Shown here piece after piece: positions 1 to 38,650 of a stretch of 64,000 bases of DNA. Origin of the DNA: Vicugna vicugna (taxonomy: Eukaryota); NCBI GenBank assembly GCA_013265495.1, contig MU057416.1, positions 118,545 through 182,544 of the forward strand, read 5' to 3'. A program made the translations under genes and the position numbers. The notes below the pieces were generated by a model. The model had not been told where the DNA came from and did not search any database. It was given only the letters and a program-made list of their open reading frames with translations. How positions within the stretch are numbered: the first letter of the stretch is position 1; each line of letters starts with the position of its first letter.

Positions 1-68
1 CCTCCTCCTGCACGCCCCTCATCCGTTTTGTGACCAGTCCCTCACAGGGCAGACAGGAGGGGGCTTAC

Positions 69-150
69 TCCTTTTGGCTTCCTCGAGCTTGTCCTTGGCC
101 CTTTTCTCTGCCTGGAGGAGCTGGTGGATCCCCTGGGACTGGCTGGCCGT
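69..150 (-). CDS. ATP6V1G3: V-type proton ATPase subunit G3, first coding exon (82 nt; start codon reads ACG)
   Basis: Minus strand reads gccggccacc-ACG GCC AGC CAG TCC CAG GGG ATC CAC CAG CTC CTC CAG GCA GAG AAA AGG GCC AAG GAC AAG CTC GAG GAA GCC AAA AGG A|gtaag = (M)ASQSQGIHQLLQAEKRAKDKLEEAKR. This matches the mammalian ATP6V1G3 N-terminus (MTSQSQGIHQLLQAEKRAKDKLEEAKKR). Canonical GTAAG donor at 68-64. Divergent synteny with PTPRC. Confidence 0.95.
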
Positions 151-374
151 GGTGGCCGGCTCCAAGTCAGGTGGCTTCTGAGAATCTGGGAAGGGATGGA
201 AATCACCACAGAGCTCACACTGTTGTGTCAGCAGTGAGCACTCAGCACAGCTGTTGGCTCCCAAGCGGCCTGATCAGGTGGGGGAGCGGGGCTCCAAGGA
301 GAGCCCAAGGGTGGAATCCAGAAGAACAAGTCAAGTCAAGGAAGCTGAGAGCTCACTTCTGCCAGCTTCAGGTC

Positions 375-381
375 TTTTATA
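375..381 (-). promoter_or_regulatory. Candidate TATA box (TATAAAA) of ATP6V1G3
   Basis: Minus strand gcaTATAAAAgac about 225 nt upstream of the start codon, in the gene's orientation; implies a TSS near 350. Confidence 0.55.
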
Positions 382-3300
382 TGCAATCAAGAGAGTTTCA
401 GGGGGTGTTGAGTCTGCTTACAAAGAAAGGAGTAAGATCTCTGCGGGAGGTTAACTTCTCTCTTCTTCCAAAGAACCTTGACGTTTTTGCTGACTTTTTC
501 TTTCAAGTTACAAGGCCTTTCTGTGTTCTTTGTCCTTGTGGTTCTAGTTTGAGGTCTTTTTCTTTAGTTTCCAATGAGTCAATTATCTGCTTGGGACAAG
601 TGTATCAGCCTTTTGCGAGGAAGGAGATCTCCTGGCTTTGTGCACAGAAGGTAGGCAAGGCGTTTACTGTTCTTCCCCAGGCCTCGGGTGACAGGAATGA
701 AGAGGCTTCTCGGGGTGTCGCAAGGCGCTGTAGCAATGCTGCGCGCTAGGGTTCCAGGAAGCCTGCCGCGTGCTGATTAAATCAGCATTAGAGGAAATGG
801 GACTGTAGGTTTTGAGGTTCGCTTAAAATCATCTAAACATGCGTGTTGTGTTACTCTGGGCTTGCCCTGGGGGACGTCCTAGTAAGAGAGTCCAGTAAAA
901 TCCACCTTATTCGAGTGGATTCAACCCGCTAGTGACTGACAAATCAAAACGGCGGGGACAGTGGAGAGATACAAAATATCGCTTACATGAATTGAAAGTT
1001 TTGTTTGAAGTGAAAAGCTAGTCTTTTGACATACGGCCGAGGCTTTTTTCTCTGACATAATTGGCAGATAGGACTGTCACTTACGATGACTTCCACCAGC
1101 TGCACCTCTGTTGCCTCATCATTACATACCAGGTGCAATTTCTTTAAATAGGTGCACAAAGTTAGAGAGTAATGGGAAGCATTCTGCGCGTTAAGTCCGT
1201 AAGGGGTTAATGATAATTCTCCCCTAACAGTTTAAAGAGATCTTGCTGTGATACCTGCATCACAATGCCACGCTCCGGCTTCATCACGTGCACAGATCTT
1301 TCCACACACGCACACACAAAAGCCCTTTTTCACAGGAGCACCTTTCCTTCTCTTTGTGTTCATATTTAATTAGTTTATAAAACTGAACTGTTATTGCATA
1401 ATTACCATCCTTGGTACATCCGGAATAAACAGGTCTGTGAACAAACACAGCTCTTCGTAAACGTGCATTTCACCTGTCAGAGCAGAAGTGTGAAGTCAAA
1501 CCGGCGACTGGCTCGCCAGCCTCTGGCGGGGCCTGGCATCGGCGTCGGCGGACTTTTTACCGAGTGGGGACCGCCAGCGACTTCTGTGAACGTTCAGTGG
1601 AGGTCGTTACAAGCAACTTGCTTTAATCTGATACCAGCAGTGTCTACTGACTTTCTCCTGAGTGCATCCCCCTGGATGAGGCCAGTTCAGGGAACTGGAT
1701 CTTGAGACACAGAGAAGGGATAATCCTGCAGGGAGATCACTGGGGAGGATCTGGGTAAGAAGGCTGATTCCTCAGACTGGCGTTAATAAATACACCGTCT
1801 CCTAAAAGTCTGAAGAGACGGGGTGACTCTGTGAGAGTTCGAACAGGTTGCGTGATCACATTGTCACCAGCGAAGGCTTCCTGAGTCCACAGTAAGCGCC
1901 TCCCTGCCTAACCCTAAGACTCCTTTCCTGGCTGCTGCGTTTTTTAAATTCAAATCTGCCAGAATAATATACTACTAATGTGCATGTGTTTTAAGCCAAC
2001 TTAGAGGGCATTATACTTGCAGACATTTACTTAAAACAGAAAATGTGTGTTACGTGAAATACAAAAGACCACTTTCCACCACCACCACAAGGGACGCACG
2101 TGAGTGACCCCCTTGGGGCGAGCTGTGCGAGCCACACAGAGCCCCGCCCCGGCTGAATTTCACTCTGCGCAGTTCTCGAACCCTGGTCAGGATCCTGGAT
2201 GCAAACTCTGAGAGCAGTAATGACAACTTTCAAATAACCTGGATGTCCAGTCAGAACAGAGGGATCACCATTGCTAGCTGTTGCTAACACAGTTCTATTG
2301 TGGGTCGCTTTCTAAATGCCTGTAACTTGCAGCGAACACGTCAATGACGGAAAACTGTCATCGTGTTTCCTTTAAGATCTCACGCATAGTTTTTCATTTT
2401 ATCACAGAAGTTTTCCTTCTCTTCATTTAATTAACAGAGGAGTCTGTTCCTGGACCAAAAATACCCATAGGGCATTGTGCCATCCTTCCTGCCAACAAGA
2501 TGCCCAGTGGGACGTCGGAGGGGGTGTCCACTCACACAGGAGAAAGGGGGCTTTGAGCATAACTCAGAGTAGGGGGTCAGAACAGTTCTGTCCTCCCCTG
2601 ACCCTCGAAGGACCACCCTCCCAGTGAGGAGGAGAGACAGAAAAACCCACCTGTAAGCAGGGAGAGATCTCATCTCAACCTGGGCTCTGGGAGAAGAGAA
2701 GTAACCACAGGGCTACGCTTGTGTGGGCTGGAGAGGACCGCGCAGGGTCTTCTGCGGACATGAAAGCACGCCGGACCGGAGCGCGCGGTCTGAACTGCAG
2801 GTCTAGTGAGACAGTGAGGCCGGCGGAGGGGGCAGCGTGGGGCGGGGGCCGGCGGCCTGGAGGGGGGGCCTAAACTTTATTATAAATGGAAGGGACTGTT
2901 CTTATCACACTAGTGGGTTACTGACTGTAACTGAGTTAGTCCCCTTTGAAATCAAAGCTAACTCCTCATGCAACTTTTCATTTATAAAATGTAAGATTTT
3001 CAAGCTCATCGCACTCGAAACCTTGTGTCTGTCAATAACCCAGATTTTGAGCCTGGTCTTCACAGATCTTGTGTTGTCGGGCCCTTCATGCACAAGCATT
3101 TCTTTTTCTGTCGGTAACAAAACACCAACAAAGCCGAGCCGACCACGTCCCAGTGATGAGGCACACTTCCCTGCCTTAACCCGTCTGATTCCCAGCGCGG
3201 CCCTGGAAATGGGTGCTGGTGTCACGTGCCACGCGGGTTTCATCAGCAGAGAGACTGAAGTGATATGACTGATGTCGGACACGGTGGCTCAGAAAACCTG

Positions 3301-4331: not shown

Positions 4332-4452
4332 CTTTTTTTTTCTCTTTTNNNNNNNNNNNNNNNNNNNNNNNNNNNNNNNNNNNNNNNNNNNNNNNNNNNN
4401 NNNNNNNNNNNNNNNNNNNNNNNNNNNNNNNNNNTTTTTTTTTTTTTTTTTT
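4271..4452. other. Poly(T) tract interrupted by an 86-N assembly gap (4349-4434)
   Basis: About 78 nt of nearly pure T, then Ns, then 18 more T. Confidence 0.95.
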
Positions 4453-5835: not shown

Positions 5836-8029
5836 CTTTTTAAAGTTAAAAAATTAAATGACAAGTATCCCACACCTTGTATTTAGTCCCCTGACCTCGC
5901 CAGCCTCACTGCTCGCAGCCTTCGGAGTTTTCTGTCTGCCCACCGAGAGAGAACTCACTTCCTTCACTCTGCCAGGCCCTGTCTTATTTTTTTTTAAATC
6001 AAATTTATTATTTCAAGATAAAGTTTTGTTCTCAAGACAACTTCTTTGGCTAAAAGGAATTGCTCATGGAATGGTGACCTGGAAAAAAAAATGCTTTGTT
6101 TTGTGACTTATTATAACATAGTGAAAAGGCTTGTCTTTTGGCCTCGTTTTGCTGTGAAATCCTCTATAGATTTCCAATTACGAAATGTGATGGTTTGAAT
6201 TAGCGACAGTACGTGGCTCAACTCTGTTATCAGGCAAGAATTCTCATTATCAGATAGACCGTTCAGAGACAACATGAAAGGTCTTAAACGGGAATCCATG
6301 GAGGGCCTGGAGGAAAGCAAGACACTTTCATTAAAGACATTTTCTGGTCCTCAGTGTTCAGAACGCATCCCAACTGAAAGGGCAGATTTTTATTGGAATC
6401 CTTCACTCAAGGATGTGCATCATGCGTTTTGTCTCAGAATCCCTTTCAACAAATCTGCAGCCCAACGTCACTACCCTTGGACAAGAGACACTGGAGGGTC
6501 CTGAGGCATTTGTATTTCAGCCACCTTTGCCCCGAAGGCTGAACCCCTGGCGGCTCGACCCTGGCTTGTTCGGGTGTAGAGTAATGCGCCCGAAGACCAA
6601 GAGACTGGGCCAAGTCTCTGCCCCCGGTGAGGCTGGTCATCCTGGGCGTGCTGTGCGGCCTCGCCATGAGACGCCGCGGATGAAACAGCGCCTGCGTCAC
6701 AGGTAAAGCACGAGGTGACGCTGGACCAAACGTGAGACCTGCCCGTGGTGGAGGCAGCGCCCGAGAGCGCCGCTGCCATCGTGGGCTGTGGACAAAGCAG
6801 AGATCGTACCAAAAGCAGCGTGGAAGTGGCCTGCCTCCACACGGCCTTGGCTGTGGCGGTGACCCTGTCTAGTGGACTCCTGAACCGGGCAGTCCCCTCT
6901 CAGGCCATCACTGTGGGACATCCTGGTGGAAGGAGCCGCACGCTGGATCCTGTCGGTTGGGCTTGGTTTTTATACTGTTTTTCAGCCAGGTGACCTCCAA
7001 AGGGCTGCTTTCTGGCTTTTCTTCTGTAAATGGCTGTTGTTATACCCGTCTTTTCCTGTTTTTGTGAGAATCAGAGATGCTCAGCTAAAGACGCCTGCCG
7101 TGATGGTGGCACACAGACAGCTCAGATACACGGTGGCTGCTGGTTGCTGGGGTGCCCGAGTGAAGGAGACTGCAGTGTCAGCAGTAGGCAGCCGTACTGG
7201 CCGTCTTGGGGTCGATTTGCAGCTTAAAAAGCCATTTTAAGTCCTGAAGTCCATGATTTGCCATGTTGAGATACAATTGAAAACCTGTAAAGTTTGGCTT
7301 AATTGAATTGGCTTATCAAAAAGAAAAAAAAACTGTGTGTAGTAATTCCATGAGTCCCAAAGTTTGAAAACCACTGACATAAACCGAAAGAAAACAACAA
7401 AAGGAAAGAGTATGTGGGTATCCCAGGTTTTCTGGCTTTTGGACAACTGTCAGATGCCCAGTGGTGAATGGGGTGAGTTGGACAAACTGGGAAACAGCCC
7501 TGAGTGCCTGGAATGTTTGCTGACCTCTGTTTTATTGTCAATCTGTAACCATAACATATGCCATTAGATGTGCCTGGTTTTGTGAGGATGGAACAGGGTA
7601 ATGGGGGGACCAAGTCACTCAGAGTTAGATTTTAGTGTCAACACAGTAGACTTAGGGTGAGACTCCACCCTGGGTCTTCTAGGAAAAGCTCTCATCAAAG
7701 GCACATGCATGACAGAAAAGGCTCTTTTATTGGACGTATTTTAGATACGCCTAGACGTTACAGGTTCTGGAAAGTCAATAACCCTCCACAGTACATTTTG
7801 TGATAGAAATTAATCGACTTACACTCCATACATTGCATGATGCCACTGGCAACCGCAGCGGCCCCCACCGCAGAGCAGGGCGGGACGCACGCTCGGGTGA
7901 TGTTAATAACGTGATGCGGCCTTTGACCCGACAAGAATACACACGTAGCCCTGGACACTCTGCTGAGCGCTTTCGCGTGTGTGGCCTCACTTGGCTCTCG
8001 CGAGGACACCATGAGGTCAGCGGGGGAAG

Positions 8030-33519: not shown

Positions 33520-34330
33520 GACACTTGCCCGTGCGACGCTAAGCCAGCGGCTCTAGCCAGGGGCAGTGTCACTGTCACCCCAGGGGACACGCGGCAGCGT
33601 CTGGGGCAGTCTCGGCTGTCACCCTGGGGCGGGGGTCGCCGCCGGGTCTGGAGGGCGCGGGCCGGGCGCTGCCCCGCACGCCCCCCGCCCAGGGAGGGCC
33701 CCCCCCCAGGGAGGCAGCCGCCGGAGCGGGGAACGGCGGGAGGGCCCGGTCGGCGGGAGCGACGTCTGCCCGCAAGGCCTCAGCACCGGGAGAGTTCTGC
33801 GGGAAAGGCTAACTCCCGGAGCGCTTTCCTTTTTCAGGGGTAGCTAAATCTCCGCTGTCAAAACCCAGGAGGAAAGCGAGCGGCTCGGAGGGCCCGGCCC
33901 GCGGGGCAGGAGGCCGCCTGCTGCGGGGCGGGCAGGGCCTGCGGGGACCTGGGCTCCGCCCGCAAGCGCAGAGCAGCGCCCGGAGCGGCCCTTCGGAGGG
34001 AAGGCCTGTCTCCCAGGCACAGGCTGTGCCTCCCGCTCACTGCTTCTCCGACCGCACAGGGCTCTGGGCGGGAGACGCCTCCGCCGGGGCTGCGGGCGGC
34101 GGGCGGGCGCGAGGAGCTCAGGTCTGCGAGGGACTAAGTTACAAACATGCCATGAGGCTGTAAACTCACGGCTGCACCTGCGGCTGCAGGCCAGCAGCCC
34201 CGCAGGAGCGCCCCTGCCCGGTGCCCGCGCTGGGGGGCGTCTTCCGGGGGGTGCCGCGCGGGGCGCAGCCGCCCAGAGCAGCCCCCGCGCCGGGCTCCCG
34301 CAGCCGGAGAGCAGCGGGGACCCATGTAAA
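33520..34330. promoter_or_regulatory. Intergenic CpG island
   Basis: About 800 nt of very GC-rich, CpG-dense sequence with multiple GGGCGG boxes; no coding exon recognised. Confidence 0.8.
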
Positions 34331-34605
34331 TGCCCTGCCTCGCTGAGAGTCACTTTGGAGGACACAAAGCCTATTCTTTCTCCCTTGAAAAGCTACCAAT
34401 TTCTGCTGTCATGTGCGTCAGAGATGGAGATTTTCCATGGACCCGAGAGCAGTCCAGGGACCATTCGTGTGCCTGTTTTGTGCACACGTGTGCAGCCCTC
34501 CATCCGCTCTGCCCTGGTGACGCAGCATCCTTCCCCACCTCCCTCAGGACTGTGCTTCAGAGCTGCAGAAGCAGAAGGGGAAGACTGCCATCAAGACCTA
34601 CGTGA

Positions 34606-35325
34606 TGGCTGGGTCATATGGTAAAGCTTTTAGTTTTTTGAGGAATCTCCGTGCTGTTTTCCATAATGGCTGCACCAAACTGCGTTCCCACCAGCAGTGT
34701 AGGAGGGCTCCCTTTTCTCCACACGCTGGGGCATATATCCAGAGGGAACCCTAATTCAAAAAGATACGTGCACCCCAATGTTCATAGTACTCAGTAGCCA
34801 AGACATGGAAGCAACCTAAGTGTCCATCGACAGATGTCTGGATAAAGAAGCTGCTGTGTATTTATACAACGGAATACTACTCAGCCACAAAAAAGAATGA
34901 AATAATGCTATTTACAGCAACATGGATGAACCTAGAGATCATCATTCTAAGTGAAGTAAACCAGAAAGAGAAAGAAAAATACTATATGATATCACTCATA
35001 TGTGGAATCTAAAAAAACAAAGGAAAAGGAAAAAAAGAGGACACTAATGAACTCATCTACAAAACAAATAGACTGGCTGTCATAGTAAACAATCTTATGG
35101 TTACTGGTGAAAGCGGATGGGAAGGGATAAATCTGGGAGTTTGAGATTTGCAAATGTTAGTCACTATATATAAAAATAGATAAAAAATTTCTTCTATATA
35201 GCACAGGAAACTATAGTCAGTATCTTGTAATAACCTTTAATGAAAAAGAATATGAAAACAAATATGTGTATGTATATGCATGCCTGACACGTTGTAACTG
35301 AGTGTACTCCAATTAAAAAAAAAAA
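34606..35325 (+). mobile_element. 5'-inverted (twin-primed) L1 insertion with target-site duplication
   Basis: 34606-34724 is antisense L1 ORF2 end; 34726-35325 is sense L1 through poly(A). Flanked by aagacctacgtga (34593-34605) and aagtcctacgtga (35324-35336). Confidence 0.9.
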
Positions 35326-37839: not shown

Positions 37840-38650
37840 TGAAATGCATCTGGCAAATATAAATCAAAACAAAACTATCTTCAGACCCAGAAACCCTCTC
37901 CACAAAGGTAGCAGAGAGAGGAAACACTTCTATTGTTGAATAAGCATTATTGAATAAGAATGTGATGTGTGTCACAGACCATCTGCCAAGAAATTGTGAG
38001 ACAAAGAAGCCTCATCTTCTGATACAGCCAGACAGACACAACCCACCATGGGCTTGTCTTTCAGATTCAAAGAAAGGCACAACTAGTCCTCAAGTCTGCA
38101 CACTCGGCAGTCACACAGAGTTCACTGTGAGTTTACCGTGATAATGGAGTCACCATCTAGGTTGGCTGATTAACTTTCTCCAGAGGAAAAACCCATGTCT
38201 ACTCTCTTTATGGCAGGATGTATGTAGCTTTAGTGCTTTTTAATGCAAGTGCTGGGGATTGAACCCTGGACCTCATGCATGCTAAGCATGCACTCTACCA
38301 CCAAGCTATATCCACTCCCCAAAAAGAGGTAGTTTTGAATCTGGAGCAAGGTATTCACTGCAGTTGGGTTTCTACCCTCCCACGGAAACTGGGAGATTGG
38401 GGAGCTGCATGCCTTGATGCTACCTGTCAAAGATAAGGTGCCTGAGAGAGAGTCCTGCTCATGAAACTGACAGAAGATCTATCTTGTTTTCGAAAGGATG
38501 TGTAGACATGTTTCAAAGAGAGGAGAATGCACTTAACATGAAAAATTTTCCAAGGTAAATGCTTTAAGAAGAAGGAGGGGAGGGAAGCCTTTTCCCTTAC
38601 TTTCAACAGGGAGCAGTAAACGCTTACGTTTAATTTGTATTTGCCCCTAA
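37840..38650 (-). mobile_element. MER34-like (ERV1) LTR, interrupted by a SINE
   Basis: cccagaaaccctctccacaaaggtagcagagagaggaaacacttctattgttgaataagcatta...aatgtgatgtgtgtcacag resembles MER34-family LTR. Confidence 0.6.
38237..38320 (-). mobile_element. tRNA-Ala-derived SINE (Vic-1-like)
   Basis: gctggggattgaaccctggacctcatgcatgctaagcatgcactctaccaccaagctata. Confidence 0.88.

Follow-up and report, generated by a model that had tools for sequence, protein, structure and literature searches.

The G3 isoform of the V-ATPase G subunit, reported in kidney and epididymis (PMC6276090, in the available part of that review), is encoded by ATP6V1G3. At this locus the initial annotation read an ACG where the conserved initiator methionine codon is expected, and proposed non-AUG initiation, initiation at a downstream methionine, incipient pseudogenisation, or a polymorphism or consensus error. 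The question is whether a gene with this codon can still specify a G3 protein, and by what route. The window, i.e. the whole stretch of DNA that was analysed, consists of 64,000 nucleotides of Vicugna vicugna (C107:118545-182544), and the gene extends past its low-coordinate edge. When the genome from which the window comes was searched in six frames with sheep G3, three coding exons were recovered:

C107:118605-118691, minus strand, G3 exon 1 (six-frame search)
C107:106469-106567, minus strand, G3 exon 2 (six-frame search)
C107:100419-100589, minus strand, G3 exon 3 (six-frame search)

These lie in order on one contig and constitute the single G3-type locus of the genome. They are 93, 70 and 77% identical to sheep G3, compared with 37-54% for the G1-type loci, and exon 1 alone reaches 96% over residues 2-29. 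The best-matching proteins, among the best 120 of 227 matches (241 candidates), bear G3 names and the PF03179 domain; the similarity being to G3 and not to G1 or G2, the locus is the orthologue of ATP6V1G3 (V-ATPase subunit G, PF03179). The remaining matches are to G1, G2 or retrocopies, the genome also containing a multi-exon G1 gene (L008), a G2 gene (L006) and G1 retrocopies. Three intronless G1-type copies (L001, L002 and L003, on C7665, C10921 and C10886), two with open frames of 117-118 codons starting MASQSQG/MASQLQG and one with a TAG, look like processed ATP6V1G1 retrocopies.

The canonical 118-codon frame, opening with AUG and stopping after ...NYR.TN, is absent from this genome. The orthologous copy carries three lesions relative to it: an ACG start and a TAC in place of the stop, both common to related species of Camelus, and an insert in exon 2, found in Lamini only. 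The start lesion is situated within the window, where the following features were recognized:

148..150, minus strand, ACG at the conserved initiator Met position of ATP6V1G3 (sequence, contig comparison and alignment)
151..160, minus strand, context GCCGGCCACC, with A at -3 and the G at +4 next (sequence)
69..150, minus strand, coding part of exon 1, 27 codons TASQSQGIHQLLQAEKRAKDKLEEAKR (150-70) plus one base (69), phase 1 (sequence)
63..68, minus strand, exon 1 splice donor GTAAGC, read 68-63 (sequence)
274..276, minus strand, in-frame stop TGA within the 5' leader; the allele is derived in this assembly, the codon being CGA elsewhere (sequence and contig comparison)
365..372, minus strand, TATAAAAG, a putative TATA box (sequence only)

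The minus strand reads ...ttgga gccggccacc ACG gcc agc cag tcc cag ggg atc cac cag..., with the ACG at 150-148. Since its alignment column is occupied by Met in 29 of 29 non-camelid placental G3 proteins, the ACG is not a chance triplet, and the ACG-GCC assigned to the initiator position is borne out. So are two further statements of the initial annotation, that exon 1 ends in a canonical donor (GTAAGC at 68-63) and that no AUG occurs from the TATA box to the end of the exon. A scripted scan in any frame detected no minus-strand ATG between 700 and 22, the sole one within 1-700 being at 22-20, inside intron 1. The first in-frame stop upstream of the ACG, again by scripted scan, is the TGA at 276-274.

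Whether the ACG is real was examined in public sequencing runs. A search with window positions 1-600 listed 24 runs with organism labels A-D, 20 of which contain part of the query and 14 at least half of the sampled words. Contig sets were compared over the same 600 positions for four runs from four studies (labels B, C and D; contig depths 9-30), and none of the four differs from the window at 148-150. In X12 (organism B) and X14 (organism C), both DNA contigs, 1-600 is found in one piece with a single difference, A>G at 276 (plus strand). X15 and X16 (organism D, labelled RNA) carry 3-600 in one piece with 19-20 letter differences and two small inserts (~3%). Their differences at 94, 196, 266 and 276 produce K19N, H>Q, R>H and stop>Arg, and the same four changes separate the window from the Camelus models P0011 and P0182, which makes organism D Camelus-like. 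All sampled 31-mers of 1-600 were found in 10 further runs (word share 1.00, a word match only), and the word share of 0.42 in X15 and X16 is an effect of the ~3% divergence, not of exon-only cover. The RNA-labelled contigs of X15 and X16 are 1.5-4.4 kb long, unspliced, and span the promoter, exon 1 and intron 1; being of genomic type, they are uninformative on transcription or splicing. Their sequence departs from the window below position 3, and they could reflect pre-mRNA, an intron 1 indel or carried-over genomic DNA. Other runs, with tick and reproductive-tract labels, form no part of the evidence.

At the Met position the annotated proteins of three named species also have Thr (...PATT-ASQSQ): Vicugna pacos XP_031531738.2, C. 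ferus EQB78245.1 and C. dromedarius XP_031294134.1. The three exons of the window's gene are 100% identical to the V. pacos model P0008, in support of the earlier guess of a probable camelid. That the ACG arose in sequencing or assembly, or is a rare variant peculiar to the individual sequenced, is hardly credible in the face of four unchanged runs from four studies and the Thr in three species' models; all that speaks for it is the general expectation that apparent losses of start codons in assemblies are frequently erroneous. The suggestion of a polymorphism or consensus error is ruled out by the same data. The initiator has undergone a genuine T-to-C change, fixed and old, which, being common to both tribes, predates the separation of Lamini and Camelus. 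The two camelid tribes split some 17-25 million years ago. The leader TGA, which had been placed just upstream of 264, does exist, at 276-274, but is not fixed: the codon is CGA in four of four contig sets and Arg in the dromedary RefSeq model (P0182). The assembly and the 10 runs with a word share of 1.00 seem to carry the derived TGA allele, and the site is probably polymorphic in organism B.

The stop lesion was found in exon 3, which in the window's genome reads ...AAC TAC AGA GTC ACC AAC TAC ACA AGC... The codon following ...NYRVTN, where 29 other aligned placentals end, is TAC, and the frame extends for 28 codons as YTSTPLFNKQCLHATSLLWLLFIVRDVT, passing a hydrophobic stretch, to a TAG 84 nt on. 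The same C-terminal extension is present in C. ferus P0011 and C. dromedarius P0124 and P0182; because it is common to Lamini and Camelus, the stop loss is shared too. An AATAAA at L009:2393-2398 (minus strand; C107:100397-100392) occurs 21 nt past the lost stop and 57 nt before the TAG, and a second lies 417 nt downstream. If the first of these is the poly(A) signal, the mRNA would carry no stop codon.

In exon 2 the canonical acceptor is intact (ttaattttcag|GAAAAGCCAAGCC, C107:106701) and fits the expected (R)KAK... It is followed by a 130 nt copy of an intron 2 segment (C107:106007-105878) with four mismatches (97% identity), past which the exon resumes as ...CAG GCC AAG GAG GAA (QAKEE), for a net gain of 123 nt. 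Read from exon 1 through the canonical acceptor, the frame gives R-K-A-K-P-K-TGA, the TGA falling six codons past that acceptor. There are 16 AG sites in the 300 nt that precede QAKEE, five of them in frame; four of the five are upstream of the TGA and read into it. The fifth, inside the insert (caaccag|TCTTTAAT), is weak-looking and leaves the frame open, and as an acceptor it could give a protein in which 13 residues replace eight. Removal of the insert as a new intron was considered and rejected by eye, as the in-frame TGA precedes the only GT candidate.

The Camelus proteins have an uninterrupted KAKRLRQAKEE without the insert, which makes the insert Lamini-specific, and the alpaca model P0008 contains KCFLIQ, coded by the 3' end of the insert. 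The evidence for the insert comes from one assembly and one RefSeq model, the latter perhaps derived from the same or a sister assembly. That the insert differs from its source at four of 130 nt tells against an artefact of assembly: a divergence of 3%, albeit with the wide error of four mismatches, is about that between the tribes and would make the insert old. At its right junction the insert (L007:1597-1721) and its intron 2 source (L013) share TCATACA-type microhomology with the native exon, which suggests a local template-switch or microhomology-mediated copy event. This insert is the only unambiguously disabling lesion of the three, and the canonical mRNA in this genome cannot encode G3.

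Constraint on the protein was assessed with an alignment of 32 hand-picked mammalian G3 proteins, mostly models of 116-119 amino acids, together with three camelid models; it excludes the micro-exon isoforms of 124 amino acids and aberrant models such as Bos mutus P0005 and fin whale P0022. A tree of 118 columns would have little resolving power, and the comparison therefore relied on pairwise counts and Tajima tests. Lamini and C. ferus differ by six amino acids in 110-111 comparable codons. Neutral simulation at the local divergence of 0.032 predicts 7.7-8.0 differences (P(<=6) 0.30-0.34), and, at the amino-acid level only, six or more have a probability of 0.17 under omega 0.5 but of 0.026 under omega 0.3, which is thereby disfavoured. 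The count, weak evidence on rates, is compatible with an omega of about 0.3-1.6, taken from protein-level differences. The simulated probability of any stop arising by substitution was only 0.32-0.35, and the lack of internal stops is therefore unsurprising. In Tajima relative rate tests C. ferus had 12-14 unique changes to 2-3 in right whale (p 0.003-0.012) and 11-12 to 4-6 in sheep or muntjac (p 0.07-0.23), the result being significant against the whale only. At the 32 columns invariant in 29 placentals, camelids differ only at M1, with the addition of Y88H in alpaca; with the invariant columns otherwise kept, any neutral phase would not be much older than the split. These protein comparisons fit, short of proof, a loss of constraint that took place near the time when the tribes separated and not much earlier. 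Against decay it may be said that the body of the frame is otherwise open in all camelid sequences, that the inspected splice sites are canonical, and that Camelus has been hit only at the termini, whereas frameshifts and internal stops form the larger target of neutral decay. By a rough estimate the chance of a second lesion landing on the stop codon would be about 5-10%.

How an AUG might be supplied from elsewhere is best seen from the annotated models. The RefSeq alpaca model draws on two further features of the window:

186..187, minus strand, internal acceptor AG joining the upstream exon into the 5' leader (P0008 residues 23-61 = 186-70)
7196..7264, minus strand, upstream exon of the RefSeq alpaca model, MANHGLQDLKWLFKLQIDPKTA, with donor CCA|GTACGG and an in-frame ATG (P0008 mapping)

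In this model an ATG exon 7 kb upstream is joined to the AG at 187-186, and exon 1 to an 8-residue piece (KTGTGSGA), which is followed by an AG inside the exon 2 insert. That of C. ferus relies on a different pair of upstream pieces, at window positions 7925-7821 and 3307-3230; the dromedary RefSeq model is startless, is labelled partial and reads through the leader; and the GenBank dromedary record begins at exon 2. The KTGTGSGA piece was not found on the gene strand of C107:106600-118600 by regular expression, fuzzy match or tblastn. Its nearest match is GSTGSGA at 116339, without splice sites, and it resembles the KTGTASG of the human 124 amino acid isoform P0063. A run of 86 Ns, either a gap or a withheld stretch, occupies window positions 4349-4434, between the G3 promoter and the alpaca upstream exon. 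No spliced camelid G3 frame derived from Logan was present among the best 120 of 376 protein matches; as the matches of other species are genomic read-throughs too, this protein collection is uninformative on expression. For annotators, the four camelid G3 records (alpaca, C. ferus and two of dromedary) are a warning, since they patch the missing start in incompatible ways.

An upstream spliced exon with an in-frame AUG would have overturned the idea of a lost start, and one does exist in the alpaca RefSeq model. Joined to the AG at 187-186, the exon at 7264-7196 would give a normal AUG and a 35-residue N-terminal extension (XP_031531738.2). The first 22 residues of the model map exactly to the window, the ATG has A at -3 and G at +4, a GT donor follows, the AG at 187-186 is preceded by a pyrimidine-rich tract, and the exon is single copy in the genome, so that its being a repeat was rejected. 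The donor CCA|GTACGG is weak by eye, however, both Camelus models dispense with the exon (C. ferus using other pieces, dromedary none), the alpaca model needs the KTGTGSGA piece as well as an acceptor inside the insert, and the lost stop is left unaddressed. Three mutually incompatible fixes of the start lend weak support to any one of them, and we regard this route as improbable. Initiation at the next AUG, which codes for the Met of ...EEAMAETD within exon 2, appears highly improbable. The canonical mRNA has no earlier AUG, and in Camelus ribosomes passing the ACG would reach it. The product would, however, be a G subunit without its first ~40 residues, including the family's most conserved stretch, SQSQGIHQLLQAEKRAKDKLEEAK, nearly invariant in 29 placentals, and in all likelihood would lack activity; the insert of the window's genome moreover puts an out-of-context ATG (CCAAAATGA) and stops ahead of that AUG. 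Initiation at a downstream Met, as earlier suggested, is thus conceivable as a by-product, at the cost of about 40 N-terminal residues.

Translation from the ACG itself is a more serious, if still unlikely, alternative, in which G3 is functional but hypomorphic through initiation with Met-tRNAi, the 28-residue tail is tolerated, and at least Camelus is supplied with reduced G3; for Lamini it would also depend on splicing to the in-frame acceptor that lies within the insert. A reporter screen covering every -4..+4 context (PMC5778536, available text) gave the exact context CACCACGG a score of 32.2 where CACCAUGG is 100, near the ACG maximum of ~40, and CGCCACGG, CACCACGA and CGCCACGA scores of 19, 9.5 and 5.5; in that screen ACG does better with A at -3 and with G at +4. 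The leader translations Ala-Ala-Met-Thr in cat and Pro-Ala-Met-Thr in rhinoceros imply G at -3 and A at +4, so that at either key position the camelid context suits ACG better than theirs, although ruminants and several other mammals also have the G at +4 (Ala2). The gene has the purine at -3 and G at +4 of a strong near-cognate context (GCCACC ACG G), and the "perfect Kozak" of the initial annotation holds for -6..+4. It does not hold for the longer NAT1 motif GCCGCCRNNXXXG, which is reported to lift ACG to about the level of AUG and to have C-7 and G-6 as key positions (PMC13754004, 2026, available part): positions -9..-4 are CCGGCC, matching four of six, with G for the key C at -7. The leader has no AUG in any frame to divert ribosomes, the Camelus frame is intact with 31 of the 32 invariant columns kept, the lesions common to the two tribes are terminal ones only, and the ACG has been retained in all camelid data despite being a CpG in a CpG-poor region (observed/expected 0.22). 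By a rough estimate, however, such a CpG would be kept by chance in roughly three-quarters of cases. The stop loss, the stop-containing insert of Lamini and an amino-acid divergence that fits neutrality also tell against initiation at ACG. Were ATG beneficial, reversion of the hypermutable ACG should have become fixed; its absence in every lineage would mean that ATG brings little advantage, an outcome expected equally whether the gene is dead or the ACG suffices. For Camelus, lineage-specific non-AUG initiation is conceivable, and the 32% scored by CACCACGG in the reporter screen speaks somewhat in its favour; gene decay is preferred as the general explanation.

Of the possibilities raised at the outset, incipient pseudogenisation fits best, and decay is further along than was apparent from the window, outside which the stop has been lost and exon 2 interrupted by an insert with a stop. 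ATP6V1G3 is probably a decaying, and in Lamini probably a dead, gene, i.e. a unitary pseudogene, on which constraint was relaxed before the camelids split. The incompatible ways in which annotators have repaired the start count as support for this reading. We infer that G3 became dispensable in the camelid stem, probably as the ubiquitous G1 replaces it in the peripheral stalk; the changes of start and stop would then have been tolerated in the stem, and the Lamini copy would later have been broken outright by the exon 2 insert. Dispensability is made plausible by the presence of G1 and G2 genes in this genome, by a review table with no phenotype, knockout or disease data for G3, and by the compensation by G1 of the G2 knockout in mouse given in the same table (PMC6276090, available part). 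Camelus, with the start and stop lesions only, could make a reduced, C-terminally extended G3 from the ACG. That its gene still works in this way, with AUG replaced by ACG, about one-third of normal initiation and a 28-residue tail, the alpaca and llama line having lost the gene later through the insert, is an unlikely alternative.

Decay of this kind has parallels among mammalian lineage-specific unitary pseudogenes (PMC5865188 and PMC6760925, as far as their available text describes them). The likeness consists in a single orthologous locus with start loss, stop loss and an exon-disrupting insertion, in lesions that are partly clade-shared and partly lineage-specific, and in a paralogue able to compensate. 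The difference is that the body of the G3 frame is open and that Camelus has been hit at the two termini only, so that death of the gene is supported for Lamini only. With this reservation the camelid G3 is a further case of a known kind, lineage-specific gene decay. A second comparison is with main open reading frames that start at near-cognate codons, such as EIF4G2/NAT1 (GUG) and the ACG sites with the NAT1 motif (PMC13754004, available part). These resemble the camelid gene in their strong context (G at +4, non-G at +5), in conservation among related species and in the absence of an upstream AUG. They are, however, ancient and supported by ribosome profiling, whereas the camelid ACG replaced an AUG kept in 29 of 29 placentals, has CCGGCC and not GCCGCC at -9..-4, and belongs to a gene otherwise damaged. 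The third is the ATP6V1G2 knockout mouse, which has no obvious phenotype as G1 rises (PMC6276090, available part), i.e. a tissue-specific G isoform is dispensable where G1 is present, and this is the assumed reason why G3 could decay; the knockout differs in concerning another isoform, another tissue and a laboratory allele. Among the papers listed, none linking ATP6V1G3 to camelids or naming this loss was found, and the supplements of gene-loss screens may list it.

Some other observations may be recorded here. Three G3 models from other mammals (P0157, P0015 and P0138) are unusual. The Dugong G3 is flagged LOW QUALITY PROTEIN and has two residues missing, the vampire bat G3 has a 25-residue C-terminal extension, and a slow loris 'G3-like' copy starts MLQQSQ and extends beyond the normal stop position. 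Erosion of G3, or variation at its termini, may therefore affect further lineages. Elsewhere in the window, positions 33800-34700 have a GC content of 0.65, a CpG observed/expected ratio of 0.69 and long open frames on both strands, and look like a CpG island, perhaps the promoter of a neighbouring gene or of a non-coding RNA. The window's single Rfam match is to tRNA (38244-38315, minus strand; 36 bits against a gathering score of 29) and may be the head of a tRNA-derived SINE and not a gene.

What the locus means depends on which of these readings applies. Should the ACG serve as the start in Camelus, it would rank among the few documented examples in which a conserved main-frame AUG has given way to a near-cognate codon, as a natural, clade-wide replacement tuning down a subunit of the kidney proton pump. 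Under gene decay, the preferred reading, a clade-wide loss or strong weakening of G3 would amount to a free 'knockout', indicating that G1 can carry renal and epididymal proton secretion, and it would be relevant to the physiology of animals with unusual water and acid-base handling.
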